Source: Candidatus Latescibacterota bacterium
GTDB taxonomy: Bacteria; Latescibacterota; UBA2968; UBA8231
Length of the DNA: 64,000 bases
Direction of reading: 5' to 3'
NCBI GenBank assembly: GCA_965217585.1
Contig: OZ244561.1
Span: forward strand, 6,304,001 to 6,368,000
Position numbers and translations under genes: made by a program. The notes beneath the pieces were generated by a model. The model was not told where the DNA came from and ran no database searches. It saw only the letters and a program-made list of their open reading frames with translations. Shown piece by piece: positions 3,818-38,611 of this stretch (within the stretch, counting starts at the first letter, position 1; each line of letters starts with the position of its first letter).

Positions 3818-3818
3818 T

Positions 3819-4562: not shown

Positions 4563-4578
4563 GTTTAGCCGCTATTTT

Positions 4579-6130: not shown

Positions 6131-6134
6131 AATA

Positions 6135-8326: not shown

Positions 8327-8332
8327 TAGCAA

Positions 8333-9205: not shown

Positions 9206-9227
9206 AAACGGCCACGAGCTAAAAGTC

Positions 9228-10214: not shown

Positions 10215-10215
10215 T

Positions 10216-10986: not shown

Positions 10987-12197
10987 GCGGCTATGCGCGA
11001 TGGATGCGTTGGTTGGCTTGGGCGGCGTGCGGGGTCGGCTGGGCCGCGGCCGCTACGGCTGATGACGTGGTGGCACTCAGGCAACAGTACAACCAAGTAT
11101 CCGCCAGCATCGACACCTTGGTCCGCCTCTATGGGGGGGACAAGCTGCGCGAATTGGCAAAGCAAAAAGAAAACAACCGGCTATTGCCGGCCAATTCCAA
11201 ACTAGTGCTGATTTTTTGGGCCGACGACGAAGCCGAGCTGTACCTCAATGGGCACCGGATCGGGGAGACACGCTTGACCCCGACTCGAGTCGAAATTCCC
11301 GTCGTGTACCTGCGCAAGTCCAATGTTTTGCGCGCCCATTGCTGGGACACCGACCGGGTCGAGAGCGGCTTTATGGCCGGTTTGTACCTGCAAGACGGCC
11401 GTGGCCGCTTGCGCAAGGTGCTGGCTACCGGCGACGGTCGCTGGTGGGTGGCCGGCCAGCGGGCCGAGCCGCGTTTTTACAACCACAGCCTGCCCGACAT
11501 TCCCGGGGCCGAGGTCATCTGGGGGACGGCGCTTTTTGGCGAGGTCGAATTAGAGGCCCGCTTTGACGCCGCGCAATTGGCCCGAGCTGCGCGCCGCCGC
11601 CCGCTCTCCGGCGCGGCCGGTGCTACGCGACACCAGCCCCAGCCTATGGAGACGCATATGGTCGTCAGCCGTCTGGTGCATCTGCAAAAGCAACGCGATG
11701 AATTGGCGCAAAAACTTCAAGCTCGCCGCAGCGCGACACAGGACGTGCTTTATCAGGGGTTTGTCCGTGGGCGGCTGGCTTTTTCCCTCGGGAAAGCGAG
11801 TAGATTGGCCGAAGTCGAAAGCATAGACGCGGCGAAAAAACTGCTCGCTTGGACCGAGGAACTGCCCGCCGCGCAACGCGAGTTGGTTTTCCCGAAAAAA
11901 CAGGCCCTCAAAGGTGCGAGCCACGTCGTGCCGCAGCGCACCTTGACCGGCGCGGCGAGCGGGGAAGCAGACCGCCGCCGAGACTACGCACCCCCGGCCG
12001 CACGCGGCTCAGCCAAAGGCGAAGGTCGCTCTACTGGATCGGGGGGTACGGGTGTACAGGAATCGTCCGCTCGGGGTATCCGCGTCGGCCTCAGTGCGCC
12101 GTGGAAACTGTGGGGGATTGCGACCGGCCTGCTGTTCTATCTGGGGGTGGCAAGTCGGCAGTGGTGGAAGCTCTTCAGCGCGAAGGAATGGACGTAG
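10983..12197 (+). CDS. Hypothetical exported protein with putative jelly-roll domain and C-terminal membrane anchor
   Basis: Signal-like N-terminus; WADDEAELYLNG...NVLRAHCWD; Gly/Ser linker then hydrophobic helix and basic/Trp tail; overlaps the SDR stop. Confidence 0.7.
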   Translation: MSGYARWMRWLAWAACGVGWAAAATADDVVALRQQYNQVSASIDTLVRLYGGDKLRELAKQKENNRLLPANSKLVLIFWADDEAELYLNGHRIGETRLTPTRVEIPVVYLRKSNVLRAHCWDTDRVESGFMAGLYLQDGRGRLRKVLATGDGRWWVAGQRAEPRFYNHSLPDIPGAEVIWGTALFGEVELEARFDAAQLARAARRRPLSGAAGATRHQPQPMETHMVVSRLVHLQKQRDELAQKLQARRSATQDVLYQGFVRGRLAFSLGKASRLAEVESIDAAKKLLAWTEELPAAQRELVFPKKQALKGASHVVPQRTLTGAASGEADRRRDYAPPAARGSAKGEGRSTGSGGTGVQESSARGIRVGLSAPWKLWGIATGLLFYLGVASRQWWKLFSAKEWT

Positions 12198-12200
12198 GGA

Positions 12201-12986
12201 ATGGGCCTCTTGAACGACGAATTAGTATTAGTCAGCAGCATCCTGTTGGTACTGGCCGGTGGAGTCAGCGTTAGCTGTTTGCACTTGCGACGAGCCCGGC
12301 GCATGCGCCGGCACGACGCAGCGTACTCTCTGTACCTGCATCGCTTGCAGCTCATCGGCAGCGGCATGGGCGTGCTGACCGGGTTTACCGTCGGGGCGCT
12401 GGCTGCTTATTACCTATTTATCAACCCGCAGCCGGCCAGTGTCTTTGCGTGGATTGGCCGCTTCTCATACGTGCTGATCGCTTGGTCGGCTGGCGGCCAT
12501 CTGTTGAGCTTGGCACACATTAATTTGCATCTTCGTCGCGAGGAACGGGCTTGGCAGCGGGGAGGAGGTCCCGGCCCTAATACCTTAGGCCGCAGGAGAA
12601 TGGAGAAGCTAGCAGAGTTGCAGCGCCAACCCGGCAACTACAGCGACCGCAAGGACAGGGACGAGGAACTGGTGGACGAGCTTGTGGGTATTATCGGCGA
12701 CCCTTTGACGCACGTGCGCCGCGATCTGGCGAGGATACCCCTGTACGGCTATTTGGGCACGGTCTGCGGCATCCTGCTGACCGCGCAGGAATTGAGTCAG
12801 ATCGACGAAGCGACCCAGACCTTTAAGGCACTCAGCGCCATGGCCGAAGGCTTGGTTTTGGCCTTTAAGACCACGCTCGTCGGCCTCTTGGCCTACTTGC
12901 CGCTGCGCAAGATAGCCGACTACTTGGTCCAGCGGCTCGCCCGGCAGGAGGACGCTTGGGTCCGAGAGAGGAATAGAAGATTGTGA
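12201..12986 (+). CDS. MotA/TolQ/ExbB proton-channel family protein (divergent)
   Basis: IPLYGYLGTVCGI and MAEGLVLAFKTTLVGL match the ExbB/TolQ TM hairpin signatures; three N-terminal hydrophobic segments. Confidence 0.75.
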   Translation: MGLLNDELVLVSSILLVLAGGVSVSCLHLRRARRMRRHDAAYSLYLHRLQLIGSGMGVLTGFTVGALAAYYLFINPQPASVFAWIGRFSYVLIAWSAGGHLLSLAHINLHLRREERAWQRGGGPGPNTLGRRRMEKLAELQRQPGNYSDRKDRDEELVDELVGIIGDPLTHVRRDLARIPLYGYLGTVCGILLTAQELSQIDEATQTFKALSAMAEGLVLAFKTTLVGLLAYLPLRKIADYLVQRLARQEDAWVRERNRRL

Positions 12987-13402
12987 GCCGCTATCTCAAG
13001 CGCCAAGCCGCCGAGTTCGAAGAACACGATATTAGCAAGGAACTCTTCTTGGGGATTATGATGCTGATGCTGTGCTTGGGTATTATGATTCTCAACGCGA
13101 CGCAACCGGTCTGGCGGGTACATCGCCACGACCCACAGCATGGGGATCGGGTCGTGCTATACACGAGCGCGGGCATGGGGCTGTCGCGCGATGGCTACAC
13201 TATCGACAGCCCCTTGAGCGAGTGGGAGTTCCGCCGGATGGTGCGCCGCCTCGCGGCCGAACCCGAAGCCAACTTGCACTTATTTCTCAAAGGAGGCAGC
13301 CGCGAGCGGCTGGCCAAACACGCGTCGTTTGCCGACTCGCTGCTTTCGACCGACCAAGCCGGAGAAAAGGTGCGCTCGGCGGTCTATGTCCATACTTGGT
13401 GA
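12983..13402 (+). CDS. Single-TM partner protein (ExbD/TolR/MotB-like topology)
   Basis: GTGA overlap with upstream gene; short N-terminus, one TM (ELFLGIMMLMLCLGIMIL), about 100 aa soluble domain. Confidence 0.6.
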   Translation: MSRYLKRQAAEFEEHDISKELFLGIMMLMLCLGIMILNATQPVWRVHRHDPQHGDRVVLYTSAGMGLSRDGYTIDSPLSEWEFRRMVRRLAAEPEANLHLFLKGGSRERLAKHASFADSLLSTDQAGEKVRSAVYVHTW

Positions 13403-13410
13403 ATGCCGAG

Positions 13411-14229
13411 CTATTCCTTGAGTATCGCCAAGACGCCCGTGCCACCGGCCAACTCGTTGAGGAACGTGACCTGCACTCCAGCTTCGCCGCGCTTAATTTC
13501 GTAGTCATCTCCCTTCCTAAGCTTGCCGTAGTGATCAACGAGGGCCTTGACCTCGCCTGCTAGCGCGATGGTTTGGCCGATGGGCGCGACTTGGGTGCCT
13601 GGGCTGTCGCGGCGGATCTGTTTAGCCAACTCGTATTGCTTGCGGAACCCGCTGCCAAAGGGCCGGTGGGTTTTGAGATAGCCCAGCTCTATGAGCTGTG
13701 TCTCGTTGGCAGCGTAGAGGTACACTGCGTTTTGCGCTGCGGCTTGGGCCTCGTCCAGTTCGGCCTTGGTCTGGGCCAACTCTTGCTCTAGGCGACGGAT
13801 GTGATCGCTCTGGCGGCGGATGCTACTATGGGTTTCCAGCAGTTCGCCATTGAGGCGGTCGGTCTCGGCACGCAACTGGGAAATGGTGTAGCGGTCCGCT
13901 TGCTTTTCCCTTCTTAGCTGCTCGATTTCGAGCTTTAACCGCGCATTGCTCTGCTTGTATTCGGTGGCCAGTTTACTCCAGTGCCGTAGCTCCTTGTTGA
14001 GCTTTTGCACGTTTTTGAGGAGCTTGTCGTTGACTTGTTGGGTGCTGTCAACCTGCGCCCGCATGTTGTCGAGCAAGCGGTTGGAGTCGTCGAGCGAGTA
14101 GGTAAGCGAGTCAATGGCGGCGTTGGCCCGGCCTATGTCGCTTTGTAATTGGAGGAGGAGCATCTCCTGCTCCTTATCGGTGCAGGCGGCGAGAAACAGG
14201 GCGATGAAAGGGATGAGGGTGCGTTTCAT
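13411..14229 (-). CDS. Coiled-coil lipoprotein
   Basis: MKRTLIPFIALFLAAC lipobox; long Q/E/K/L-rich heptad region; AAGGAG RBS. Confidence 0.8.
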   Translation of the reverse strand: MKRTLIPFIALFLAACTDKEQEMLLLQLQSDIGRANAAIDSLTYSLDDSNRLLDNMRAQVDSTQQVNDKLLKNVQKLNKELRHWSKLATEYKQSNARLKLEIEQLRREKQADRYTISQLRAETDRLNGELLETHSSIRRQSDHIRRLEQELAQTKAELDEAQAAAQNAVYLYAANETQLIELGYLKTHRPFGSGFRKQYELAKQIRRDSPGTQVAPIGQTIALAGEVKALVDHYGKLRKGDDYEIKRGEAGVQVTFLNELAGGTGVLAILKE

Positions 14230-14239
14230 TGTCGGCTCC

Positions 14240-15007
14240 TTAAGGCGTTAGGGATGTTCCACTATATAGGCTATCAACTTGGGCCATGGTTTGGTTGAAG
14301 TCGTTGTGCAGGGCGCTCAGGCTGCGGGCGAGTGCGTCGAGTTTTTGGACCGAGAACTTTTGGGTCTCGCGGGCGGCGGCGATTTTGTCTATGATCGCCT
14401 GCTGATTGCGCTGAAAAGTCGCGGTTTGCTCTTGCAGGCGGGCCAACTTGCTGTTGAGGGGGCCGAGCTGCGCCTGCACGCTCGCCAAGGAGAGCTTGTG
14501 GGTATCGGCGAGGTTTTGGTAGCGCAGGTCTTCCTCTTGGAAGCGTTCTTCGAGCTTGCGGTCGGTATCGGATTGATAGCGCAGCCGCTCCTTGCGCTCG
14601 GCGTCCGTTTTGTTTTGCAGCGCGTTGTTGTGATCGATTTGGTTCGCTAGTTGGTTGCGGGTGCGCTTGTGGTGATCCTTTTCGTTTTGCAGGAGGGAGC
14701 GGATCTCGAATTCAGAGGCGGTCAGATTGGCTTTTTCCTCTAGCTGGCCAATGAGCCGAGTGCTCAGCTCGGAGAGGCGAGTGGAGAAGTTCTCCATTTG
14801 CGTGTCTAGCTGATGGCGGTGCTCCTTTTGCCGCTCGTGATTGATAAAGAGCACCAAGCCCATGACACAGCCGACGACGACAGTGGTGTACACGGCGAGG
14901 ATCAGCACGTGTTTGCGCTCGAAGGGATCCGCGATTCGGAGCAGGCCCAAAAACCCGCCCCAAACCAAGAGGACGCCTCCTAAAATTGCCGCGATGATAA
15001 CGTTCAC
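14240..15007 (-). CDS. Hypothetical membrane protein, two TM helices plus long coiled coil
   Basis: GTG start after GAGG; two N-terminal hydrophobic helices then about 190 aa of helical Q/E/K/R-rich sequence. Confidence 0.75.
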   Translation of the reverse strand: MNVIIAAILGGVLLVWGGFLGLLRIADPFERKHVLILAVYTTVVVGCVMGLVLFINHERQKEHRHQLDTQMENFSTRLSELSTRLIGQLEEKANLTASEFEIRSLLQNEKDHHKRTRNQLANQIDHNNALQNKTDAERKERLRYQSDTDRKLEERFQEEDLRYQNLADTHKLSLASVQAQLGPLNSKLARLQEQTATFQRNQQAIIDKIAAARETQKFSVQKLDALARSLSALHNDFNQTMAQVDSLYSGTSLTP

Positions 15008-15111
15008 GAGGCCTCGAATGGCGCGATAAAGAAAAAAAGAATAACTAAATATAAGTATATAAGTAATACAGCAGCCCATGGAGGCGCAACCATCACGAGA
15101 AGGAGGTGCTT

Positions 15112-16161
15112 ATGCAGCGGAAAGTTGCCGCTATTGACGGCCGCGGTCAGGGGGTATGCCTAGAGGAAGCCATGCCCGCACTCGGCCCCGGCGAGGTAAA
15201 AGTGCGGGTGGAGGCTTCGTTGATCAGCCCGGGGACCGAGTTGGGGAGGGTTGGGGCGATGCGGGAAACCCCCCAACCCCACAGGCCACCGCGTCCCTTT
15301 GGCTACACCAACGCCGGCGTCGTCGAAGAGGTCGGGGCCGAGGTAGAGCAATTCGAGGTGGGGCAGGGCGTGGCCTGCATGGGGGGTGGGTATGCCCTGC
15401 ACGCCGATTGGGCCTGTGTGCCGCAGAACTTGTGCGCGGCCATACCCGAGGGCGTTGGCTTTGCCGAGGCCGCGTCTGTGCATCTGGCGGCGACCGGATT
15501 ACACGCAGTGCGCCGCATAGCTCCTTTGTACGGGGAAAATGGGGTCGTCGTTGGGTTGGGTTTGGTCGGCCAGTTCGCTGCCCAATTCGCCCAGTTAAGC
15601 GGCTGCCACGTCTCGGGGGTCGATCGCTTTGCGCGCCGTCGAGACATTGCCCGGCAGGTAGGCATCGAGTGCGTCGTCGATCCGACCGTGCAAGACGTGA
15701 TCGAGCAGGCCGGGAAATTCACCCGAGGGTATGGCATGGATTTCGGCGTCATTGCCTTTGGCGGCGAGGCTAGCGATGCCTTTGCCACCATCTATCAGAG
15801 CCTAAAGCAAGCGCCAGATACGCATCGCATGGGGCGCATTGTCCTCGTGGGAGGAGCACAGGTAACGCATGGCTTTGGATCCGCGCTGGGCAACGTAGAT
15901 GTGCGGAGTGCGGCACGCACCGGTCCCGGCTATCACGACCCAGCGTACGAGCGCGGCCAAGCGTATCCCGAGGTCTTCGTCGAGTGGCCGACGCAGCGCA
16001 ACCTAGCCGAGTGCCTGCGCGCCATGGCCGCTGGGAAGCTGCGCGTCCAACCGCTCTATACCCACGAGTTTGCCCTTGAAGAAATCGCCGCGGCCGTAGA
16101 TGTACTCGTCGAGTCGCCGGCCGAGGCGCTGGGGGTCGTGCTCAAACCGGCTCGCCGGTGA
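15112..16161 (+). CDS. Zinc-binding alcohol dehydrogenase (MDR) family protein
   Basis: SLISPGTE, FGYTNAGVV, GLGLVGQ; AGGAGG RBS. Confidence 0.87.
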   Translation: MQRKVAAIDGRGQGVCLEEAMPALGPGEVKVRVEASLISPGTELGRVGAMRETPQPHRPPRPFGYTNAGVVEEVGAEVEQFEVGQGVACMGGGYALHADWACVPQNLCAAIPEGVGFAEAASVHLAATGLHAVRRIAPLYGENGVVVGLGLVGQFAAQFAQLSGCHVSGVDRFARRRDIARQVGIECVVDPTVQDVIEQAGKFTRGYGMDFGVIAFGGEASDAFATIYQSLKQAPDTHRMGRIVLVGGAQVTHGFGSALGNVDVRSAARTGPGYHDPAYERGQAYPEVFVEWPTQRNLAECLRAMAAGKLRVQPLYTHEFALEEIAAAVDVLVESPAEALGVVLKPARR

Positions 16162-16885
16162 CGAGGTTGCGCTTGCCCTCTGGATAGAAGGTCACCGGCG
16201 GCAGGTCGATCTCCTCGCCGGCGATCATTTGCTCCAGCAGAGCGGCGACCCCGTCCACGGCTGGCCCCACTAGGGCTTCGCCCTTGGCGCGCGTGCCCAA
16301 GGCGGCGGCCGGGTTGTCGATGGCTCCGGTCTGCACGCGCTCCGGCGCTAAATAGAGCATGGTCGATGTCTCGAATTCGTCGGCGTGCCCAGGCAGGCGT
16401 CCCCGCTCCATGTGTTGCTGCACGTGGTCGGGGTCATATACGTCCCAATAGGACTGGAAGCGGAGATTGACGCCGAGTTTGTCCTGGTATTCGTCGATAC
16501 GACGCATCATGGGTTTGACATTGCCGCCGTGGCCGTTGAGCACCAAGATGTTCTCAACGCCAGCCCGCGCGAGTGAATGGCAGACGTCGAAGACGTATTC
16601 GCAGAAAATTTCCGGCCGCACGGTCAGGGTGCCGATGTGCGCCATCCAGTGCTCGGAAACGCCGATACCCACTGGTGTGGCCACCACCACTTGGGGCAGG
16701 AGCTTTTTGGCCGCGTGCTCAGCCATATAGCTGGCGTGGAAGGTGTCGTGGATCATGTGCAGGTGTTCGTTGTGCTGTTCGGTGGCGGCCGTGGGCACGA
16801 TGGCGGCCTTGATCGTACCCGCTTGGATGCGCTCGCGGAATTCCTTGCGGGTCAGGTCGCCAATAAAGACGCGTTCGTCGGCCAT
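16142..16885 (-). CDS. Creatininase family protein
   Basis: TEQHNEHL, GVSEHW, LNGHGGN, HADEFETS. Confidence 0.9.
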   Translation of the reverse strand: MADERVFIGDLTRKEFRERIQAGTIKAAIVPTAATEQHNEHLHMIHDTFHASYMAEHAAKKLLPQVVVATPVGIGVSEHWMAHIGTLTVRPEIFCEYVFDVCHSLARAGVENILVLNGHGGNVKPMMRRIDEYQDKLGVNLRFQSYWDVYDPDHVQQHMERGRLPGHADEFETSTMLYLAPERVQTGAIDNPAAALGTRAKGEALVGPAVDGVAALLEQMIAGEEIDLPPVTFYPEGKRNLVTGEPV

Positions 16886-28506: not shown

Positions 28507-29828
28507 TCAAGACCAGGGTGGGGATATTCTGCTTGGTGGTTTTGTACGCGGTCTCCAGTCGCCCAGCCGCCGCAGAGGCCAAGCCTCTGATCCTCGACTT
28601 GCAGACCGGGTTGACTTTGGTGCAAGAAAACAACGAACGCCTGTTGCAAGCCCGCATTGACCTGCTGCGCGGTCGCGAGGAACTCCGCGTGGCGCGAGCG
28701 GCAGGTCTGCCGCAGGTCGATGCCTCCTTCACGTATAGCCGCAACTGGCTGCTGCCTTCTTTTGTTTTTGCCGGCAATGCCGTCAGGATCGGTACGGAAA
28801 ACAACCTCACGGGCGTCGTGAGCATGCGCCAGCCGCTCTATGCCGGAGGCCGCATTCGCGCTACCGAGGACATGGCCCGCCGCCAATTTGCCATGCTTGG
28901 CGAGACCAAGAGGCAGACAACACAGCTCGTGGCAGCCGAGGTGGAGGAGCGCTTTTACGATCTGCTCCTAGCAGCGGAATTGCGCACGGTGTCGCATCTA
29001 GCGCTTGCATGGGCCAAGCACAATCTATCCCAGGTGGAGGCATGGGCGCAGGCTGGCCGGGCCGCTGAGCTCGACCAGTTGCGCGCTCAGGTGCAGGTCT
29101 CGAACATGCGCGCCGACTCCATCCGCGCCGAAAACAACCTGCGGCTGGCCACTATGGCCCTCAAGGATGTCGTTGGTTTAGACTTGGATCGGGCCATAGA
29201 AGTGCGGGGAACGTTTCGCACCGAGACGGCGCTCGATCTCAATGATCTGGACGCCCTCGTCGCCTTGGGGCTAGCGAAGCGGCCAGAACTGGGGCAAGTC
29301 GAGCAAGAAATAGGATGGTACGAGCGAAAGATCACCGCCGATCAGGCGTCCACCCGGCCTAGGGTGGAACTAGTAGCCACTGGGCAAACCCAGTTCCAGA
29401 GCGATGGGTTCGACCTAGCCGATCGGGAGTGGCGCAAGAGTTGGAACACCGGGTTGGTAGTGCAAATACCGCTTTTCGACGGGCGGCTCACCGGGGCGCG
29501 AGTAGCGCAGGCGCGGCAGGACCTGCGCCGGATAGAGTACGACCATCAACGGATCGCAAGACAGGTGCGGCTGCAAATCCAGCAGGCCTATTATGCCGTC
29601 GAGGAAGCCAGCGAGCGCATTGAGGCCCACCGCGATGCGGTATTGCAGGCCGAGAAGGGGCTGGAAGTCGCCGAGTTACGCTATGCGAGCGGGGTCGGCA
29701 CGCAATTGGAAAATCTGGACGCGCAATTGGCCCTAGTAGAGACCCGCACCCAAAGCGCTGTCGCTCGCCGCGACAAGGCGCTTGCCCTGATGCGGCTCGA
29801 ACAGACCGTGGGCGTCCTCGGTGAGTAG
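28500..29828 (+). CDS. TolC family outer membrane protein
   Basis: Signal peptide; LPQVDA, QPLYAGG, IPLFDG, YASGVGTQLE outer-membrane efflux repeats. Confidence 0.9.
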   Translation: MLIKTRVGIFCLVVLYAVSSRPAAAEAKPLILDLQTGLTLVQENNERLLQARIDLLRGREELRVARAAGLPQVDASFTYSRNWLLPSFVFAGNAVRIGTENNLTGVVSMRQPLYAGGRIRATEDMARRQFAMLGETKRQTTQLVAAEVEERFYDLLLAAELRTVSHLALAWAKHNLSQVEAWAQAGRAAELDQLRAQVQVSNMRADSIRAENNLRLATMALKDVVGLDLDRAIEVRGTFRTETALDLNDLDALVALGLAKRPELGQVEQEIGWYERKITADQASTRPRVELVATGQTQFQSDGFDLADREWRKSWNTGLVVQIPLFDGRLTGARVAQARQDLRRIEYDHQRIARQVRLQIQQAYYAVEEASERIEAHRDAVLQAEKGLEVAELRYASGVGTQLENLDAQLALVETRTQSAVARRDKALALMRLEQTVGVLGE

Positions 29829-29865
29829 TAAACCACAAACACTTAACAGGAAAGGGAAGACCGCC

Positions 29866-31080
29866 ATGGGCGATAGACAATACACGGTTAGAGCCTCGCA
29901 TTGCCACCATCGGGCGAGTGAGGAAGAGATATACGAGGTCCTCAAACGGACTACCGATCCGCTGGAGCGCTCTTGGAAGAAGCTGGAAAAAGCGCGGCGG
30001 ATCGCATTAAAATTCAATATGATCAAGCCGCCGGAGCGCATAGAGTACTTCGCTGGCCGCCGGAGGGAGTTGGTCGATGATGCCGTGGCCCGCGCGGTGC
30101 TGCGCCTGCTGCGAGAGCGGACGACAGCCGAGCTAATCGCCACCGACACCTACCCCTACGGCAACGGCCATGTAACGCCCGACGACTTCAACTACCGCTA
30201 TATATTGGACGATTTTGACGTTCGCTACGTGGACTCGAATTTGCCTCCCTTTGCCACATACGATGTGCCCGGTGGCGGCTGCATGTTCGACCGCTACCTG
30301 CTCAATGCCATCTTTGCCGAGGCCGACGAGGTGGTATCCATCGCCAAGATGAAGAATCACGCCTTTATGGGCATTACATTGACCCTGAAAAACCTCTTTG
30401 GCCTGCCTCCGATGATTCCGCCGGAAGGACGGACGCGGTCGTATTACCACCATCTAATCCGGCTTTCTTACGTCCTACCGGACTTGGGCATGATTACCAA
30501 ACCCTGCCTCAATATCGTCGAGGCCCTCACCGGCCAATGGGGCCGCGAATGGGGTGGCGAGGGCCGGATTTGCAACGCGTTGATGGCCGGCGATCATCCG
30601 GTGGCGACCGATGCTTGCGGCATGACCTTGATGGGCCACGATCCCCACTCCGATTGGCCGACCCCGCCTTTCCGCCGCGATCGCAATCACCTGCTGATAG
30701 CTGCCGAGCACGGCTTTGGCACAGTGGATTTGAACGAGATCGACTTTGCGAGTGAGGTCGAGGCCCCGTTGGCCGAATTTGACTCCGTATCTACGGACCC
30801 AGACGCCACGGTGGCCAATTGGCGGTGCACCACCTGTGAGCAGGGGCTGATCTACCAAGACGAACAGCGGAAGCTAACCGACCGCTATCGAGGGGAGTTC
30901 ATCTATATGCAGGACGGCCAAGTGGTGTGGAACGGGGCCGACCCGAGCAACCTCGGCAGCCGCCGCAAACTCAGCGGCGACAGGAAGGACAGCGCCCTTT
31001 GGCTCAAGTACGTCGATCCGGAAGAGGGGGAAGGGGAGCGCTTCGAGCGCTACAGCGAGTGTTTGCGGCTGGCGTCTTAA
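29866..31080 (+). CDS. DUF362 domain protein with C-terminal extension
   Basis: LKFN, VSIAKMKNH, TLTLKNLFG, GDHPVATD. Confidence 0.8.
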   Translation: MGDRQYTVRASHCHHRASEEEIYEVLKRTTDPLERSWKKLEKARRIALKFNMIKPPERIEYFAGRRRELVDDAVARAVLRLLRERTTAELIATDTYPYGNGHVTPDDFNYRYILDDFDVRYVDSNLPPFATYDVPGGGCMFDRYLLNAIFAEADEVVSIAKMKNHAFMGITLTLKNLFGLPPMIPPEGRTRSYYHHLIRLSYVLPDLGMITKPCLNIVEALTGQWGREWGGEGRICNALMAGDHPVATDACGMTLMGHDPHSDWPTPPFRRDRNHLLIAAEHGFGTVDLNEIDFASEVEAPLAEFDSVSTDPDATVANWRCTTCEQGLIYQDEQRKLTDRYRGEFIYMQDGQVVWNGADPSNLGSRRKLSGDRKDSALWLKYVDPEEGEGERFERYSECLRLAS

Positions 31081-31094
31081 CGCAGGAGGAGCAG

Positions 31095-31457
31095 ATGATT
31101 AGGGGCGACAAGGAACTGTATGTAGTCGGCGACCGCGTGCTCATCCGGATTGACGACATGGAAGAGCGCACGGCCGTAGGGCTTTATTTGCCGCCGACCG
31201 CCTTGGAAAAGGAGAATGTGCAAAGCGGGCGCATCGAAGAAGTGGGGCCGGGCGTTCCCCTGCCGCCGAAAACCGATGACGACGGTGCACCTTGGGAAGA
31301 GGGGGGCGAGCAGATGCGCTACATCGGCCTCCAGGCCAAAAAAGGCGACCACGCCATTTTCTTGCGCAAAGATGCGGTGGAAATCAAGTTCGACAACGAG
31401 AAGTTTATCGTCGTGCCGCAGGCGGCGATCTTGGTGCTCGTCCGGGACATTGCTTGA
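31095..31457 (+). CDS. groES: Co-chaperonin GroES family protein (no adjacent groEL)
   Basis: VVGDRVLIR, GLYLP, GRIEEVGPG, AKKGD, AILVLVRD. Confidence 0.85.
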   Translation: MIRGDKELYVVGDRVLIRIDDMEERTAVGLYLPPTALEKENVQSGRIEEVGPGVPLPPKTDDDGAPWEEGGEQMRYIGLQAKKGDHAIFLRKDAVEIKFDNEKFIVVPQAAILVLVRDIA

Positions 31458-31459
31458 GG
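31407..31459 (+). repeat. groES 3' end, resident copy (pairs with 34890-34943)
   Basis: atcgtcgtgccgca...gcgatcttggtgctcgtcc...ttgcttgagg is shared with 34890-34943. Confidence 0.85.
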
Positions 31460-31494
31460 GCCGTTTGGGACCGTATGCAGGAAAGGAGAAGGAA

Positions 31495-31824
31495 ATGGGC
31501 GTTGCTGATCTGATTCAAAAATTCCAGTTTGTCGTGGACTCTAATGGCGAGAAGCAATCAGTGCTAATCGACTATGCGGTTTGGGAAGAGCTGTTGAACT
31601 TGCTGGAGGACCTTGAAGACTCAGAGGAAATCAGTCGCCTACGCGACGCGGCAGAAGAATCCATTCCATGGGATCAGGCTAAGGTGGAACCGCTATCTGA
31701 TGATAAATTCGAGGCCCTAGCCGATCAGTTGGCCGACGTTTTTATGGATTATGTTGATCCCGATTGCCCCCCATTATCCGATTACGCGGTTAGCCGCAAA
31801 GGACTTTACGAGGATCATTTATAG
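31495..31824 (+). CDS. Chimeric antitoxin-like protein
   Basis: N-half QFVVDSNGEKQSVLID...LEDLEDS...SIPWDQAK and C-half FEALADQLAD...PPLSDYAVSRKGLYEDHL each resemble small type II antitoxins. Confidence 0.6.
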   Translation: MGVADLIQKFQFVVDSNGEKQSVLIDYAVWEELLNLLEDLEDSEEISRLRDAAEESIPWDQAKVEPLSDDKFEALADQLADVFMDYVDPDCPPLSDYAVSRKGLYEDHL

Positions 31825-31826
31825 TC

Positions 31827-31856
31827 GTGATTTATCTGGTCGATTGTGGCCGTTGA
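31827..31856 (+). pseudogene. Possible PIN/VapC toxin N-terminal stub
   Basis: GTG ATT TAT CTG GTC GAT (MIYLVD) starts 2 nt after the antitoxin stop and reaches a stop three codons later. Confidence 0.4.
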
Positions 31857-31872
31857 CCCCGAGACGGTTTAG

Positions 31873-32472
31873 ATGATCCATCGTGCCGCTGCCCTCAGTC
31901 AAGGTCCGCTCCTCTGGTCTGGCGAACACTGGATTCTCTATCTGAGTCTGCCTGGAGCCAAAGCTGACAGCGGACAACTTAGTCTGTACAACGCGGCCTA
32001 CAGTTCCGCCGGCCGGGGCACCGTGGCCTATATCGACATTCCCGGCTCTGAGGGCCTGGCTGCCGTCTGCACCGACAACTCCGACTTGGCCGATTTTATT
32101 ACTGCCACCATGATTCGCGGCAGCAATAATCCATTCGACCGCGATCTGCCCCAATGGCCAGCCACCTTCAGCCGCGCTGGTCACATTGACCGCAATCCTT
32201 CTTGGACCATCCAAAGTGAGCACCACACCCTGACCGCCACTTGGGAGCAATTGGAAAGCCCCCTAGTCGGCCCGCCTACCATCAACCCCCAGATCGTCTT
32301 CACAGTGCTGGTTTTTGCGGCCGCCGGCCAGATGCAACTCGACGGCATGGCCGTACCCGGCCGCCCCTATCCCCGTGATGCCTGGAGCAAAAGTCTAGGT
32401 CAAGCCCGCAGTTCCTGCTGTTTTGCGCTGGCCGAAACCATGGTGGCCGGCCATTCGAGTGGTGGGATTTGA
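31873..32472 (+). CDS. Hypothetical protein
   Basis: 199-aa ORF with coding-like composition; no recognised family. Confidence 0.65.
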   Translation: MIHRAAALSQGPLLWSGEHWILYLSLPGAKADSGQLSLYNAAYSSAGRGTVAYIDIPGSEGLAAVCTDNSDLADFITATMIRGSNNPFDRDLPQWPATFSRAGHIDRNPSWTIQSEHHTLTATWEQLESPLVGPPTINPQIVFTVLVFAAAGQMQLDGMAVPGRPYPRDAWSKSLGQARSSCCFALAETMVAGHSSGGI

Positions 32473-32496
32473 CGGGTAGTAGGGGAAGGCGATAAG

Positions 32497-32796
32497 TTGG
32501 ACATCGAATACCAACTTCAAGACATCAGGTTTCAGTGGGATGAGAACAAAGCCCAAAGCAACGTGCTGAAGCATGGCATCGCTTTTGAAGAAGCAGCCGA
32601 AGTCTTTTTCGATCCCTTTCATCAAACAGGGGATGCCTCCATTGATGATGAACATGAACAACGGGATTTCATCCTTGGTTACTCGTCTCGGCGACGTATT
32701 TTGCTAGTCGTTTATGTAGAGCGAGACAAACTGACACGCATCATATCTGTGCGCCGTGCGACGCGGCGTGAAAGGAAGTCATATGGAGACCCGTGA
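32497..32796 (+). CDS. BrnT family toxin (DUF497)
   Basis: FQWDENKAQSNVLKHGIAFEEAAEVFFDP...RIISVRRATRRERKSY. Confidence 0.92.
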   Translation: MDIEYQLQDIRFQWDENKAQSNVLKHGIAFEEAAEVFFDPFHQTGDASIDDEHEQRDFILGYSSRRRILLVVYVERDKLTRIISVRRATRRERKSYGDP

Positions 32797-33550
32797 AGTC
32801 GATCTTGCGTTCCGTCCTCGTGCGACGGAAAAAGTATCCATAGAGATACCAAAGGATGTGCTCAATTCCCTCAAGCAGGTCGCCGCCAACCGAGACATGT
32901 CGGTCCAGGCATTAATCAAGTCCTATATTGGGCAAGGGGCGCGACAAATGACGTCCTTAATGTGGGCCGCCCAAGACGGCTATTTAGCGTTGGTGCGTTT
33001 TTTGGTGTCTGAGGGGGCTGATATCCACGTGCGCGATGAAAACGGCTGGACCGCCTTGATGTGGGCTGCCCAAGGCGGCCATTTAGCGGTGATGCGCTTT
33101 TTGGTGTCTGAGGGGGCTGATATCCACGTGCGCGATGAAAACGGCTGGACCGCCTTGATGTGGGCTGCCCAAGGCGGCCATTTAGCGGTGATGCGCTTTT
33201 TGACAGAGCAGTTTGCCGATATCCACGCCCGAAATAACTTCGGCGATACGGCCTTGGTGTTGGCTGCCCAAGGCGGTCATTTAGCGGTAGTACGTTTTTT
33301 GGTGTCTGAGGGGGCTGATATCCACGTGCGCGATGAAAACGGCTGGACCGCCTTGATGAAGGCCACCGTTGGCGGCTATTTAGCGGTGGTGCGCTTTTTG
33401 GTGGACCGCGGGGTTGATGTCAATACCCGAAATGAGTCCGGCGATACGGCCTTGACATGGGCTGTCCGGGGTTCCCACATCGAGGACGGCGAAAAGAAAA
33501 AGTGCTACGAGGAGGTGGTAGCCTTTCTCAGAGCGGCTGAAGCTGTCTGA
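32783..33550 (+). CDS. RHH/CopG-type antitoxin fused to about 6 ankyrin repeats
   Basis: N-terminal TEKVSIEIPKDVLNSLKQVAANRDMSVQALIKSYIGQG, then in-frame 33-aa ankyrin repeats (GWTALMWAAQGGHLAVMRFLVSEGADIHVRD); overlaps the brnT stop. Confidence 0.85.
   Translation: METREVDLAFRPRATEKVSIEIPKDVLNSLKQVAANRDMSVQALIKSYIGQGARQMTSLMWAAQDGYLALVRFLVSEGADIHVRDENGWTALMWAAQGGHLAVMRFLVSEGADIHVRDENGWTALMWAAQGGHLAVMRFLTEQFADIHARNNFGDTALVLAAQGGHLAVVRFLVSEGADIHVRDENGWTALMKATVGGYLAVVRFLVDRGVDVNTRNESGDTALTWAVRGSHIEDGEKKKCYEEVVAFLRAAEAV
32948..33442 (+). repeat. 99-bp tandem repeat array encoding ankyrin repeats
   Basis: Five 99-nt units; 32999-33097 is identical to 33098-33196. Confidence 0.93.
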
Positions 33551-33577
33551 GTAGGGTGGGAAAGCGTATAGGACGAA

Positions 33578-33606
33578 AGCCCAAGCCGTGTAAAGTGGCT
33601 TGGGCT
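33578..33606. terminator. Hairpin between the convergent ankyrin and nuclease genes
   Basis: AGCCCAAGCC-N9-GGCTTGGGCT perfect stem; short T-tract on the minus strand. Confidence 0.55.
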
Positions 33607-33655
33607 GGGGATACCTTGATAAGATAAATTCACCAATAACGCTGAAAACAACACA

Positions 33656-34849
33656 TCATAAGTCCTTAACAGCATCCCACACCGGCTTCAGGTGGTGTGC
33701 AATTCCTTTCACATACTCCTTCCTCGCTTTCTCGTTGAACAGCAGCTTGGACACTAATTTAAGGTTCTTGGAGGTGGGATTTCGCAGATCCAGTCCTCCA
33801 TCGGCACATCGATACCAGGGCCACCACTGATTTGATTTACCACCGTTCACGTTTTCTAACGCTTCCCTGAGTCTGTTGTACTGATCTTCGTCTTCTCCTT
33901 TGTAATAATGGACGCCGAAGTTAATATCGCTGCCAAACTCAACGCTAATCTGGGCGTCTCCGCTGCCAAACGGATAGAATAGGCCGTAATACATGCTCCC
34001 TTTCGTACCCCTGACGTATTTCTCCATCGTCTCCTCAGAGAATTCGCGGTCCTTGTTCTTGTCAGCAGGCTTCTTTGAAATCAGTTCTGTCAGTGAGGAG
34101 TCAATTTCACCGTACAGTTTTTTCAGCAACGAAATTCTGACACGAATTACAGCCTCATTCAAGTCGTGGATGAGAGTGAGATTCTTGCCCTGTAAACAAA
34201 GTTTCTCTAAGTCTTTCATATATGCCTCACTGAAATCCGTACCTGTCAGCTTGCGAACGAGCTGTAGGTACTGAGCGATTGATTCCCGCAACGCGGGTTC
34301 GTCGTAAGCGCGTTTTTGACACCCTTCCAGCCAAGGAGGAAGGTCGTCCCGGTAGGAAATACTTTGGTAATAGAGATTGCCGACGCTATCCTCGGAAGGA
34401 GCGTAGCCATCAAGCGTCAGATACAGCAGAGATATGTCGTCGAATCCCCCTTTTTTTAATCTATCGTGGTATCTCTGTAATTGCTGAGGTTGATCTCCGG
34501 CCCCAATCTTGTTCTCGATCACAACCGCTTGTCCGACATCATTGGTAATCAAGATGTCGATGTTATCGCGCTCCCGATCTACTTTGATGCCGCTCTGATA
34601 AAAGTCCTTCTTGGCAACACGTCGCAAGAACTTCGTCAGGTTTTGTCGTGGTGCATCGGGCGACTTCTGGTAGTTGAGCAGCCCGTAAAGAAACCGGGAG
34701 TGGAGATTTACCTCATCGCGTTCTCCACGCAGAGTGGAGAAAATGTTGAAGGGATCCTCTCGTCCAGCCTCATACTTCTCGTATAAGTGATCTGCCCGTT
34801 CTAACAGCAATGCTGCCTGTTCCAACCGCGATTGGTCGTCGTTGTTCAT
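33656..34849 (-). CDS. PD-(D/E)XK nuclease family protein (PDDEXK_4-like)
   Basis: FNIF...EVNLHSRFL, NIDILI...VIENKI..DQPQQLQRY, YLTLDG; visibly lower GC than the flanks. Confidence 0.85.
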   Translation of the reverse strand: MNNDDQSRLEQAALLLERADHLYEKYEAGREDPFNIFSTLRGERDEVNLHSRFLYGLLNYQKSPDAPRQNLTKFLRRVAKKDFYQSGIKVDRERDNIDILITNDVGQAVVIENKIGAGDQPQQLQRYHDRLKKGGFDDISLLYLTLDGYAPSEDSVGNLYYQSISYRDDLPPWLEGCQKRAYDEPALRESIAQYLQLVRKLTGTDFSEAYMKDLEKLCLQGKNLTLIHDLNEAVIRVRISLLKKLYGEIDSSLTELISKKPADKNKDREFSEETMEKYVRGTKGSMYYGLFYPFGSGDAQISVEFGSDINFGVHYYKGEDEDQYNRLREALENVNGGKSNQWWPWYRCADGGLDLRNPTSKNLKLVSKLLFNEKARKEYVKGIAHHLKPVWDAVKDL

Positions 34850-34889
34850 GGATGCCCCTTATCAAGCTTAGTGAATAGGCAGACCAAAC

Positions 34890-34943
34890 ATCGTCGTGCC
34901 GCAAACAGCGATCTTGGTGCTCGTCCTCGACCCTTGCTTGAGG
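34890..34943 (+). pseudogene. Displaced, diverged copy of the groES 3' end
   Basis: 47 of 54 aligned positions identical to 31407-31459; encodes IVVPQTAILVLVLD versus resident IVVPQAAILVLVRD; one 1-nt insertion before the stop. Confidence 0.85.
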
Positions 34944-34991
34944 ACTTGCTCAACCAGCTCTCTACTGCCCGTGTAAAAATCTTTCCCACCG

Positions 34992-35108
34992 TTAGAAGAA
35001 CGACCTTTGTTTGAGAAACTCCACTGGCGCTTCCTCGCCCCAGCCGCGCGTGTAGTAGTCCTGCATGGTCAAGGCCAGCAGGATGCATAGCGAGAAGAAG
35101 CCGGCGAC
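34992..35108 (-). pseudogene. Displaced, diverged copy of the ctaF 3' end
   Basis: 117 bp with 11 mismatches to 35951-36067; encodes VAGFFSLCILLALTMQDYYTRGWGEEAPVEFLKQRSFF then stop. Confidence 0.92.
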
Positions 35109-35128
35109 GGGTTTAGCAGGTGGTGAAC

Positions 35129-35512
35129 TCATATTGGCAGTCCCAAACTAGCGCGAATAGCTCGGCGAACCTGAGCACAGATTTGCATAGCATGAAGAGT
35201 ATCGCTGGCCGTTGCTGACTTTCCGGGATAGCGAAAATCCACTGCATGCGCGGTAAGGACTTGAAAGTCAGCCTGCCAAGAGTGCCAATCCGGCACAGTT
35301 TGCACGATCAGATCCAGCAATTCTTCCAGATCGTGAGTTCGCGGAAAAGGAAGGTTTGCTTCTTGAAGCCAAGCTTTTAGATACTTTTCGATACACTGCT
35401 GGGCATGGAAGCAGATGGCATCATGCGTCGGATTGGGTGCCTGCTGAAGCCACTGAGCCGAAGCATAATCGCCTTCGGCCTTTTGCGTCCATTCCAGCGT
35501 CAACGGATTCAT
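35129..35512 (-). CDS. HEPN domain protein
   Basis: EWTQKAEGDY, CFHAQQCIEKYLKA, RTHDL, FRYPG. Confidence 0.9.
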   Translation of the reverse strand: MNPLTLEWTQKAEGDYASAQWLQQAPNPTHDAICFHAQQCIEKYLKAWLQEANLPFPRTHDLEELLDLIVQTVPDWHSWQADFQVLTAHAVDFRYPGKSATASDTLHAMQICAQVRRAIRASLGLPI

Positions 35513-35816
35513 AGAGTACTTGCCCTTTTTGCATAATTTCCCGAAGAAACCAGTCGTTATGCGAGACTCGGTAAGCAATTTCTTCCGGGGAACGGACGAG
35601 CAAATCCATGCGGAAGCGGCGGGGGATACGCTGCCGAATCGCCACGGCTTGGCGACGAGTCTGCGATTCTGGGATCGCCATGACCACGCACAGATCGACA
35701 TCCGAGTCTTCCGTGGGGGTGCCGTAAGCATAGGAGCCGAAGAGAATAATTTTCAGGGGGGCAAATTCTCGGGCTATGTCATCACAGGTCGCCTGAATGT
35801 CTTTCGGGTCAACCAT
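35421..35816 (-). CDS. Minimal nucleotidyltransferase (MNT)
   Basis: IILFGSYAYGTPTEDSDVDL (GSx10DxD); overlaps the HEPN gene. Confidence 0.9.
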   Translation of the reverse strand: MVDPKDIQATCDDIAREFAPLKIILFGSYAYGTPTEDSDVDLCVVMAIPESQTRRQAVAIRQRIPRRFRMDLLVRSPEEIAYRVSHNDWFLREIMQKGQVLYESVDAGMDAKGRRRLCFGSVASAGTQSDA

Positions 35817-35950
35817 GCTTGCCAGTCCGTATAATAAAGAAAAAGGCTTGGGATCGAGGGCGGGACGTCTCCGATCCCAAGGACGCAATTCAAGATACGA
35901 GGGTCTCTCGCCTGCGACAACTCGACAATCCTCGAAGGCCCGGCGTGGGT

Positions 35951-36292
35951 TCAGAAAAACGATCCTTGCTTGAGAAACTCTACCGGCGCTTCCTCGCCCC
36001 AGCCGCGCGTGTAGTAGTCCTGCATGGTCAAGGACAGCAGGATGCACAGCCAGAAGAATCCGGCGACCGCAAAAAGCCCGACCAGCTTGGGGCTGTATTT
36101 CACGTGCATGAAGAACAAGATGACCAGCGATGCCTTTATCAAAGCGATGACCAAGGCGACGGGCGTATTCAAAAAGCCCATGTTGACGAAGGCGGCGGCC
36201 ACCGTGAGGGTCGTGCCGAGCATCAGGGAGAAGAAGATCAGAAAGTAGATCTTGAGCGGGACGACGTGATGTTCAGAGTGATGTTCAGACAT
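35951..36292 (-). CDS. ctaF: Cytochrome c oxidase subunit IV (caa3-type)
   Basis: Three TM helices; KASLVILFFMHVKY; last gene of the oxidase operon. Confidence 0.88.
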   Translation of the reverse strand: MSEHHSEHHVVPLKIYFLIFFSLMLGTTLTVAAAFVNMGFLNTPVALVIALIKASLVILFFMHVKYSPKLVGLFAVAGFFWLCILLSLTMQDYYTRGWGEEAPVEFLKQGSFF

Positions 36293-36951
36293 TAGTGACG
36301 GCCGATCAGATAGAGCAGTGGGAAGAGGAAAATCCACACGATATCCACGAAGTGCCAATAGAGGCCGCTAAGCTCGATCGGCGTAAAGTACTGGGCCGAA
36401 ATCTCGTTGCGCCGGACTTTGGCGATCATCCACAACATGATACCGACGCCGATGACCATGTGCAGCGCGTGCATCCCGGTCATCACGAAGTAAAACGAGA
36501 AGAAAATTTTGGCGTTGCCAAGCGAGACTGTGGGGTCGTTCCACTGGAACATGCTTCCGGGGATGAGGTGCTCGTGCCACTTGTGGCTGTACTCGATGTA
36601 CTTGACGCCTAAGAAGGTACATCCGAGAATAATCGTGGCGATGAGCCACCCCGTAATCGCGTTGCGACCGGCGTTGGTCTGCGCGGCACGGACGGCCAGC
36701 GCCATGGTCAGGCTGCTGGCGATCAGCACAATGGTGTTGAAGGTGCCCCAGGAGATATCTAGGTGGTGCGAGCCAGCGGTAAAGGCTTCGATATATTTGT
36801 AGCGATACACGGTGTAGGCACCGAACAACCCCCCGAAGAACAGAATTTCCTGAATGATGAACGCCCACATGCCGAGACTGGCGGTTTCGTATTGCTGCTG
36901 CGCTGTCTCGAACTGGTGTAGGTGGTGGGCGCTATGTGCGTGATCAGACAA
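36292..36951 (-). CDS. ctaE: Cytochrome c oxidase subunit III
   Basis: [44 protein letters not shown]; TTG start after AGGAGG. Confidence 0.93.
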
Positions 36952-38611
36952 CTTCATCCTCCTTAGCGCGTTCAGGTACGGCCTCGGTGCTTGGTGCCGC
37001 TGGTTCCTCCTCGCCGTAGGGATAGGCTTCCCAAGTAACTATCGGGATGGCTTCAAAGTTGTGGGCTATGGGAGGCGAGGGAATGTCCCATTCGAGACCC
37101 TTGGCTTGGAACGGATTGGCGGGGGCCTTTTCCCCCTTGAACAGGGACCAGAGGAGATAGACGATGGTCAGCGAGAAGCCCAGCCCGAGGACCGTGGCAC
37201 CCGCGGTGGACATGATGTTGAGGGCTTGCCATTCCTCGGGATAGGCGTGATAGCGCCGAGGCATTCCCAAGTAACCCAAGATAAATTGCGGAAAGAAGGT
37301 CAAGTTGAACCCGGCGAAGACGAACATGACGCCGAGCTTGGCCGCCCCTTCTGAATACATGCGCCCGGTCATTTTAGGCCACCAAAAATGCAGGCCACAG
37401 AGGAACCCCATGACCATGCCGCCCACCATGACATAGTGAAAGTGGGCGACCACGAAGTAGGTATCGTGGAGATGGACGTCTATGCCCAAGGTGGAGAGGA
37501 ACAGGCCCGTCAGGCCGCCGATAGTGAAAAGGCCGATAAAGCCCATCACGTAGAGCATAGGCGAGTCTAGCTTAACCGAGGCTTTGTGGAGGGTGAAAGA
37601 CCAGTTGAAAATTTTGATGGCCGTGGGTACGGCGATGAAGAAGGTGATGAAGGAAAAGACCATGCTGGCATAGGTGGATTGGCCCGATACGAACAAATGG
37701 TGGCCCCAGACGAGAAAGCCGAGGACGGCGATGGCCAGCGAGGAAAAAGCGACAAAGGAATAGCCGAAGACGCGCTTGCGCGAGAAGCAAGCTATGACTT
37801 CGCTGACGACGGCAAAGCCCGGCAGGATCATGATATATACGGCTGGATGCGAGTAAAACCAGAACATGTGCTGAAAGAGCACGGGGTCGCCGCCGTAATT
37901 GGGATCGAAAATGCCGATCTTGAAGAGGCGCTCGAAGCAGACCAGCAACAAGGTGATGGCGACCACCGGGGTGCCTAGGACCTGAATCAGGCTGGTCGCG
38001 TAGTGCCCCCAAATAAAAAGCGGCAAGCGGAACCACGTCATACCCGGGGCCCGCATCTTGTGGATGGTGACCATGAAGTTGACCCCGGTGAGGATCGAAG
38101 AGAAGCCGTTGACAAAAACGCCGACTAAGGCTAAGGAAACGAACGAAGTGGAGTACGTACTGCTATAAGGAGTGTAAAAAGTCCAACCCGTATCAATGCC
38201 CCCCATGATGATGGCCAGCACGGCGAAGGCTCCGCCGGCGACGTAGAGGTAGTAGCTCAGGAGATTCAGGCGGGGGAAGGCCACATCGCGGGCACCGATT
38301 TGCAGCGGGATGAAAAAGTTGCCCAACACCGCCGGGATCGAGGGGATCAGAAAGAAGAAGATCATCACCACCCCGTGCATGGTGAAGAGCTTGTTGTAGG
38401 TCTCGGCCTCGACCAAATCGCCTTTGGGCGTCATCAGCTCAAAGCGGATCATACTGGCGAAAAGGCTGCCGGCCAAGAAGAAGACCGCCAGCGTTATCAA
38501 GTAGAGGATACCGATGCGCTTGTGGTCTAGGGTCAGGAGCCAAGATTTGATCCCATACGTTTCGTTGAGATAGTTTCTCGGCTCGCCGTTGGCGCTCGCT
38601 GCGTGGCTCAT
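36944..38611 (-). CDS. ctaD: Cytochrome c oxidase subunit I (type A2)
   Basis: [20 protein letters not shown] (YS motif of type A2), VWGHH, VVAHFHY, GMPRRY. Confidence 0.97.

Follow-up and report, generated by a model that had tools for sequence, protein, structure and literature searches.

How do toxin-antitoxin (TA) and defence genes come to be lodged between two conserved housekeeping genes when no recombinase accompanies them? The question is raised by a 4.5 kb island between the conserved convergent genes groES and ctaF of a Candidatus Latescibacterota bacterium (GenBank GCA_965217585.1, contig OZ244561.1). The island lies in a stretch of 64,000 nucleotides, positions 6304001-6368000 of a single-contig genome (G000) of 7,323,734 bases and 59.5% G+C; this whole stretch is called the window below, and island coordinates are counted from its first base. 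Both flanking genes are intact, and a second, diverged copy of the 3' end of each lies farther inside the island, beyond intervening genes (cargo A behind groES, cargo B behind ctaF). The original prediction read these displaced ends as fossils of insertions that had each supplied the target gene with a new end. The evidence presented here leans to a homology-based route for such insertions without settling the mechanism, and scars of this kind are found behind about 39 genes of the genome.

The groES pair (31407-31459 and 34890-34943, + strand) has 47 identical positions over 53 and 54 bases, with one 1-base indel, and the ctaF pair (34994-35108 and 35953-36067, - strand) is 91.3% identical over 115 bases; both repeats are thus present where they had been predicted. 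When the ctaF pair is extended to 117 bases (displaced copy 34992-35108, working end 35951-36067), the stop codons differ, TAA in the displaced copy and TGA in the gene. A self-BLAST of the whole genome matches each segment with its partner only (E = 1.0e-5 for groES and 1.5e-37 for ctaF). The displaced copies face each other convergently across 48 bases and both reach the stop-codon position, similarity ending 2 bases past the stop codon in the groES pair and 2 bases short of the end of the stop codon in the ctaF pair. The ctaF relic retains an open frame and encodes the same C-terminus as the working end, with 3 amino-acid differences; the groES relic is decaying and has a 1-base frameshift.

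Contigs from three public short-read runs, possibly the genome's own source samples, bridge both relics with 0 differences (X20, 33449-35055; X21, 33449-35052; X23, 34345-35052), and further contigs of these runs continue from 35045 to 35414 or 35396, again with 0 differences. Moreover, the ctaF relic occurs with an identical 5' boundary and an identical adjoining cargo end in two separately assembled genomes of the genus (G014 and G007). This relic is therefore not an assembly artefact, and the strain mixing that the original prediction had allowed for does not account for it. In contigs of four runs, a form of data that drops rare variants, no joint between repeat copies such as would mark excision or a circle was seen. 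Contigs from the same metagenomes (X20-X24) also carry other alleles of the hotspot over 31460-35953, either without the antitoxin, without BrnT, or with the hypothetical gene joined directly to a ctaF end, which indicates that several lineages with different loads, possible recombination partners, co-occur.

The state of the site before insertion is seen in related genomes, the groES-ctaF locus having been taken from 15 congeners (16 stretches). Four of them (G009, G015, G016 and G017) carry an empty allele in which groES and ctaF are convergent, about 80-130 bases apart, with a hairpin terminator between them. This bears out the proposal that the two genes were once adjacent and convergent. 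The accompanying suggestion that the empty allele would span the 48-base spacer between the relics (34944-34991) holds only for the existence of a convergent empty allele: the spacer does not align with the terminator hairpin and is not recognisably ancestral, and a reading of the two relics as an intact empty allele was abandoned for this reason. Elsewhere the hotspot carries the hypothetical gene alone (G010, G012), an antitoxin with a PIN gene and the hypothetical gene (G001, G002), ParE (G003), a WG-repeat gene (G004), or a pentapeptide gene with an IS4/5 transposase (G011). The insert of G002 at the PIN position is of the same size as that of G001, but its open reading frame (ORF) has no Pfam match. 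In G014 the PDDEXK gene and MNT-HEPN are both found, the ctaF relic is worn and 11 bases of the groES relic are left, while G005 has a 35-base groES relic of its own behind an antitoxin alone. In G007 the ctaF relic lies by groES and the intact ctaF is 320 kb away and inverted; the break in this split hotspot (C2:513000-528300 and 840000-852000) falls inside the MNT-HEPN unit.

From these alleles we infer the direction of the ctaF event. The junction between the working end and the cargo leader carries TGA in G000 and G007 and TAA in G014, and the TAA of the relic is that of most congeners. The relic matches the intact ctaF of G001, G007 and G010 at 93.9% of positions and the copy of its own genome at 91.3%, both copies lying within the identity range of the genus; a call of native versus imported from identity alone was dropped because of this range, and only the stop codon and the sharing of the junction can be taken to polarise the event. 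As the relic has TAA and is nearer to the ctaF of other species than to its sister copy, the two copies are different alleles of the genus pool, the relic looking like the resident one. This agrees with the original proposal that a new end was supplied and the old one pushed outward: the relic retains the genus-typical stop, and the putatively imported working end, with its TGA, is fused to the MNT-HEPN cargo.

The working end of groES (31407-31459) is likewise fused to its cargo and predicted to be an imported allele, 78 bases together with the downstream antitoxin leader being 100% identical to G001. Since the groES relic directly adjoins the ctaF relic, cargo A is probably a composite that arrived in one piece from a donor already carrying antitoxin, hypothetical gene, BrnT and nuclease. 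On this side the cargo would have come from a donor allele and not have been assembled in place. Nor is the first gene of cargo A the antitoxin chimera formerly supposed. It encodes an ordinary Phd/RelB-type antitoxin, 95% identical to that of G001, in which a PIN toxin gene follows the same antitoxin; about 400 bases with this PIN partner are missing from G000, leaving an orphan antitoxin.

Displaced ends of this kind are widespread in the genome. A self-BLAST (word size 12) was combined with a simple codon-model gene caller (5,878 genes, 90.6% of the genome), and isolated direct repeats of 30-400 bases no more than 20 kb apart were kept, that is 497 of 3,102 pairs after removal of dense repeat regions. 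Truncated copies of 3' ends lie downstream of the gene in 42 pairs, at 39 genes, as the original prediction had anticipated; the mirror arrangement, used as control, has the truncated partner upstream and occurs 4 times. The repeats have a median length of 90.5 bases (30-230) and a median identity of 91.6%, five pairs being 100% identical. Cargo length over the 42 pairs has a median of 1,877 bases (113-16,540), the smallest cargos consisting of one TA operon (844, 673 and 655 bases) or of 113 bases. Similarity stops between -2 and +6 bases from the end of the stop codon in 29 of the 42 pairs. Among repeats that start in a gene and end between -20 and +400, this 9-base bin holds 46 of 87 with the partner downstream and 9 of 36 with the partner upstream. 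The targets, 18 of 37 scanned having an NCBIfam name, include rpoN, dnaK, rhlE, thiamine diphosphokinase, fdhD and argE-, sufS- and xdhC-like genes. The first cargo gene of many units reads in the direction of the target and begins 9-40 bases past the stop codon of the latter.

Sites can be loaded more than once. Three genes of the 42-pair list have two stacked relics, and a fourth (3373880) has three. Relic lengths vary among independent events at one gene (54 versus 35 bases for groES; 136 versus 135 and 75 for a second gene), and stacked relics within G000 arrays measure 54/71, 66/45 and 134/51 bases. The gene at 4808579-4811545, with DUF433/DUF5615 cargo, is empty in G007, has two independent relics and other cargo in G009, and carries stacked units in G013. 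At rpoN, the cargo gene adjoins its target only in G013, and 0.4-12 kb of extra DNA lies in between in G012, G002, G010, G001 and G031, a spacing that fits the entry of new units always next to the gene. No motif shared by the 42 left or right junctions was seen by eye, no formal motif search having been made.

The scan also gave some less regular cases. A mirror signal exists for 5' ends, with 19 truncated copies upstream versus 7 downstream (e.g. 5076000-5077787 and 5028872-5031984); it is weaker and less clean, its boundaries being spread over 0-150 bases before the start codon, and some cases are mis-called 3' events. Site 6618467 is entangled with a multicopy insertion sequence, so that no clean reading is possible. 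This insertion sequence, of about 940 bases (6616971-6617912), recurs at 100% identity at two further positions of G000 and in many copies in congeners, and abuts a 53-base relic of the end of a TonB-dependent receptor gene. An AAA-ATPase_like + PDDEXK_9 gene family has at least 8 copies of 76-87% identity (e.g. 5058620-5060347), one of which is the sole cargo of a displaced-end unit.

The differences between working and displaced ends bear on the origin of the incoming copies. The 326 mismatches are distributed as 77, 49 and 200 over codon positions 1, 2 and 3. Codon differences in the 32 ungapped pairs comprise 124 synonymous and 77 non-synonymous changes, and indels occur in 10 of the 42 pairs. 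The third-position excess implies that the two copies diverged mostly at a time when each served as a working end in its own lineage. Beside a constrained copy, a decaying dead one would be expected to show a far smaller excess, which speaks against true duplication of the target. This codon pattern marks the incoming ends as alleles from relatives and not in situ duplications. Mismatch density is flat along the 42 repeats (7.5-10.8% per bin) and no conserved crossover core is visible, though one of 7-15 bases could hide.

The absence of integrase, transposase and terminal inverted repeats noted for the island is upheld: no PF00589 or PF00239 match was found in the window, and the island has no Pfam transposase domain and no inverted repeat at the cargo edges. 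Pfam likewise detected no tyrosine or serine recombinase or rve-type integrase domain in 112 cargo ORFs from the arrays or in the seven island ORFs, and no recombinase domain in 41 hotspot ORFs of nine congener loci. A six-frame hidden Markov model search of the whole genome, reading through stops, gave 5 PF00589 and 0 PF00239 matches, and the arrays therefore hold no recombinase pseudogenes. Three of the five tyrosine recombinases are conserved across the genus, in which close congeners have 3-8 matches each. Arrays free of recombinases number 38 of 39.

The cargo itself is rich in TA, restriction and defence genes. The Pfam survey covered 112 of 120 script-picked cargo ORFs, the eight in-window picks being left out and the seven island genes scanned separately. 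Defence and restriction families include Hachiman (HamA + helicase), GmrSD, a type I system, a type II pair, two Uma2 genes, HNH, YhcG and Schlafen/AlbA; TA families include PIN/HicB, three DUF433/DUF5615 pairs, MazF, FitA, UPF0175 and an HI1420-type antidote. Larger defence-like sets also occur, one with nSTAND3, a kinase and NERD, the other PD-Lambda-2-like. Other cargo comprises an oxidoreductase, beta-propellers, radical SAM, SusD/TonB and leucine-rich repeat (LRR) proteins, and a two-component system with an ABC exporter, and a single IS630 DDE transposase was found among the scanned ORFs. With PADLOC (E <=1e-10), 25 of 104 cargo ORFs match a defence model versus 5 of 61 non-island genes of the window, where the matches are to generic domains; this count includes the seven island genes and leaves aside the 15 ORFs of the largest, non-defence cargo. 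The association of displaced ends with such genes, also part of the original prediction, is thereby supported.

We propose that two additive gene-end replacement events filled the island. Each would have brought in DNA from a related lineage, with an allelic version of the last 54 or 117 bases of the target gene and cargo directly after it, and this DNA would have recombined with the chromosome through the short homology. The gene would then end in the imported copy and run into the cargo, the resident end being left downstream as a 5'-truncated stub. Joining would be the work of host homologous recombination, not of a site-specific integrase. One possible course is a Campbell-type integration, the single crossover with a circle that has been put forward for rhs tips; the other is a one-sided homologous crossover with the heterologous tail joined illegitimately inside the end of the gene. 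A homology-anchored, integrase-independent additive insertion by either of these routes is the explanation that we favour, with moderate confidence. The competence-related genes comEC and dprA are present, which is weak evidence as both are near-universal.

Several points weigh against this explanation. With only 30-55 bases of homology diverged by about 10%, homologous recombination is inefficient, and about one third of the repeats fall in this size class. The sharp boundary at the stop codon (29 of 42 pairs) is predicted by no model considered here and is typical of long-lived integrative elements. Ku is absent from the genome, so that classical end joining would be unavailable for an illegitimate step; like the presence of the competence genes, this absence is too unspecific to count for much. 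The array behind the gene at 3373880-3375298 (- strand), which spans 3343762-3375298 and has three relics of 167, 103 and 75 bases, contains a tyrosine integrase gene (3359222-3360226) beside the second relic. Given this position, site-specific integration makes the same scar in G000 at least once; two integrase-less units, one of them PD-Lambda-2-like, are stacked in front of the integrase. The gene caller and the repeat scan are also crude, and would miss diverged or short relics. Some of the 39 sites are doubtful, namely LRR or repeat-family regions, a 35-base repeat around 113 bases and one hsdM target.

The integrase array gives weight to a different reading, in which the scars are attL/attR relics of integrative elements that carried a target 3' end in attP. 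Their integrase would have been deleted or would act in trans from a helper, as in cis-mobilizable elements (CIMEs), and addictive TA and useful defence genes would remain. The architecture of the scars is indistinguishable from that of such elements, down to the tight boundary of similarity at the stop codon. We nevertheless regard this reading as possible rather than probable. A recombinase accompanies only 1 of 39 arrays, and the five tyrosine and no serine matches in 7.3 Mb come without pseudogene remnants. The matches of close congeners include three conserved housekeeping types, and none lies in the hotspot in 10 genomes. Moreover, 39 unrelated target sequences would require as many specificities, no conserved core is visible in the repeats, and an integrase gene would be longer than many of the units. 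Insertion with long target duplication, in the sense of Nobusato, Furuta and Kobayashi, would have cargo entering at a break, with genuine duplication of the target at that moment and divergence of the copies only later; it would suit the five identical pairs and the abundance of nucleases and restriction systems in the cargo. Precedents are published for restriction-modification genes without mobility genes, flanked by repeats longer than 30 bases (PMC2853133). The third-position bias and synonymous excess are unlike the decay of a dead copy, and the ctaF relic is nearer to genes of other species than to its sister copy. This is the reverse of Table 3 of that paper (PMC2853133), where the two repeats are closer to each other than to the empty target; this origin therefore seems unlikely.

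Homing appears about as improbable, or slightly more so. Here a cargo nuclease would cut the empty allele near the gene end, and repair would copy in the recoded end of the donor together with its cargo. The cargo often includes PD-(D/E)XK, HNH, GmrSD, Uma2, NERD or restriction genes, and imported ends differ at many synonymous sites, which would protect them from cutting. On the other hand, many units carry only RNA-targeting TA pairs (MNT-HEPN, MazF, PIN, DUF433/DUF5615) or metabolic and surface genes, and no LAGLIDADG or GIY-YIG family turned up in general scans of the cargo. The least credible alternative, to which we give almost no weight, is that two strain alleles of a polymorphic site were stitched together during assembly. 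G000 is indeed a metagenome-assembled genome, and alternative alleles co-occur in the same samples. Against this stand the short-read contigs that bridge relics and junctions in three runs, the recurrence of relic and boundary in G014 and G007, and the 42-to-4 asymmetry and stop-codon register, which are not expected from mis-joins.

Under the favoured homology route the register at the stop codon calls for a separate explanation. Our best guess is that selection would keep the gene-end copy intact in both lineages, while sequence past the stop would be freely replaceable; in addition, promoter-less cargo may need read-through from the target gene. A wider proposal can be put forward tentatively, as less likely than the homology-anchored insertion on which it builds. 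Gene-end-addressed cassettes might form a general, integrase-independent mobile class, each with an address label in the form of a working 3' end of a conserved gene, 30-230 bases long and cut off at the stop codon. They would be loaded by host recombination always next to the gene, the newest unit innermost, and in lineages poor in integrases they would be the main means by which TA and defence genes reach core hotspots. On this view the sharp boundary would have arisen as an adaptation of the unit and would not be a by-product.

Several known systems resemble these arrays in part. At rhs loci, C-terminal ends are displaced, homologous recombination through a circular intermediate has been proposed, and exchange is described as limited to close relatives (Jackson et al. 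2009, PMC2935791). In this account, as here, an intact gene is followed by 5'-truncated end copies with cargo between and no integrase. The incoming rhs piece is described as a different, non-homologous C-terminal toxin tip, whereas the imported ends in G000 encode the same C-terminus and the cargo lies past the stop codon. The targets are also ordinary genes such as groES, ctaF, rpoN and dnaK, unlike rhs as presented there. Restriction-modification inserts with long target duplication are reported to be shorter than 20 kb and free of mobility genes, with direct repeats of more than 30 bases that are single-copy in an empty relative, their mechanism being given as unknown (Furuta, Abe and Kobayashi 2010, PMC2853133). 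Inserts below 20 kb, repeats above 30 bases, a single copy in an empty relative and a lack of mobility genes are found here too. The repeats reported in PMC2853133 are near-identical and not tied to stop codons (overlap with gene 3' ends of 2-15 bases), in contrast to the diverged alleles ending at the stop in G000. Unlike the cases set out there, dozens of sites are affected in one genome, often with TA pairs. Restriction-modification cargo, as in that report, occurs at other G000 sites and not in the island.

How integrase-free defence hotspots in the core genome are assembled is an open question, called enigmatic by Johnson et al. (2023, PMC10250203). As described in that work, these hotspots share with the present locus a variable defence and TA content between core genes without marks of mobile elements, and transfer through flanking homology has been proposed for them. 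The island is also unlike a transposon or insertion sequence, having neither a transposase nor terminal inverted repeats at the cargo edges. The minimal mobile elements of Neisseria likewise have variable content between core genes and are proposed to be transferred through flanking homology. As far as they are set out in these accounts, the core-hotspot and minimal mobile element models predict a replacement that leaves no scar, whereas the displaced ends here would record an additive, one-sided event.

Integrative elements that restore the 3' end of a protein gene are well known, as in e14 and phage 21 in icd, or ICESt1/3 in fda with CIMEs and accretion; tycheposons and homology-facilitated illegitimate recombination belong to the same background. 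In these integrative elements, as in the arrays of G000, the target receives a substitute 3' end whose differences are mostly synonymous, the displaced one persists as a pseudo-end on the far side, and units may be stacked in tandem. The island also has their direct repeats of the target 3' end at both edges, and one G000 array is of this kind. The arrays differ from them in the lack of an integrase in 38 of 39 cases and in the hotspot of 10 genomes, in the lack of a visible conserved core, and in units that may be as small as one TA operon. In the open-access literature searched, no description of stop-codon-bounded displaced ends at many housekeeping genes was found, which is not proof of absence. 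What is new here is the scale within one genome (about 39 ordinary genes), the allelic and stop-codon-registered ends that we take to be imported, together with a cargo of TA and defence genes and an almost complete lack of recombinases.

The genes of the island have the identities claimed in the original prediction, Pfam returning Cpn10, COX4_pro, BrnT, CopG-like with ankyrin, PDDEXK_4, HEPN and NTP_transf_2. On the left, a conserved DUF362 gene (29821-31080, + strand; PF04015), found beside groES in every congener locus that has groES, precedes the intact groES-like co-chaperonin gene (31059-31457, +; PF00166, E = 1.5e-11), which is 74-95% identical to its congeners. In cargo A, the orphan antitoxin (31495-31824, +) matches RelB-like and PhdYeFM models, both below cut-off. 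The following hypothetical gene (31873-32472, +; 199 aa) is a common resident of the hotspot across the genus, behind groES in G001, G002, G003, G010, G011, G012 and G013 and partial in G005 and G014; it has no Pfam or PADLOC match, and an Atlas search returned unnamed clusters only. A BrnT ribonuclease toxin gene (32497-32796, +; PF04365, E = 3.3e-26) is followed by a gene fusing a CopG/BrnA-like antitoxin head to five ankyrin repeats (32756-33550, +; Ank_2, 4e-72; PADLOC PDC-M72A; CopG_antitoxin at residues 22-58, below cut-off). This fusion, an unusual antitoxin architecture, overlaps the BrnT stop region and contains five near-identical 99-nt tandem repeats. The last gene of cargo A encodes a PD-(D/E)XK nuclease, a candidate single-gene defence system PDC-S26 (33656-34849, -; PF14281, PDDEXK_4, 2.6e-27; PDC-S26, 9.4e-91), also present in G014. 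A weak 27-nt inverted repeat (33615-33641 and 34840-34866), 70% complementary and possibly due to chance, brackets this gene.

Cargo B comprises the HEPN toxin (35129-35518, -; PF05168, 1.4e-19) and the MNT nucleotidyltransferase antitoxin (35421-35804, -; PF01909, NTP_transf_2, 2.8e-11). The intact ctaF (35951-36358, -; PF03626, COX4_pro, 4.6e-12) encodes cytochrome c oxidase subunit IV, and two oxidase subunit genes conserved in congener loci come after it (36292-36957 and 36944-38611). HEPN with NTP_transf_2, and BrnT with the CopG-like head, are adjacent small genes with the domains expected of their families, and MNT-HEPN and BrnT-BrnA are predicted on this basis to be type II TA pairs. 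Pfam and PADLOC identified no restriction-modification system in the island cargo, which holds TA pairs and PDC-S26.

In the arrays of G000, loading events at dozens of sites can be read from the scars that they left in a single complete genome, and relatives add empty, singly loaded and stacked forms. Such scars allow inference of the order in which units were stacked and of the direction of an event, together with unit size (down to a single TA operon) and donor relatedness (congeners diverged by 5-15%). If the route is free of recombinases, a short piece of a housekeeping gene would suffice to make any cassette transferable within a genus, and a scan of the kind used here could date and count such events across genomes.

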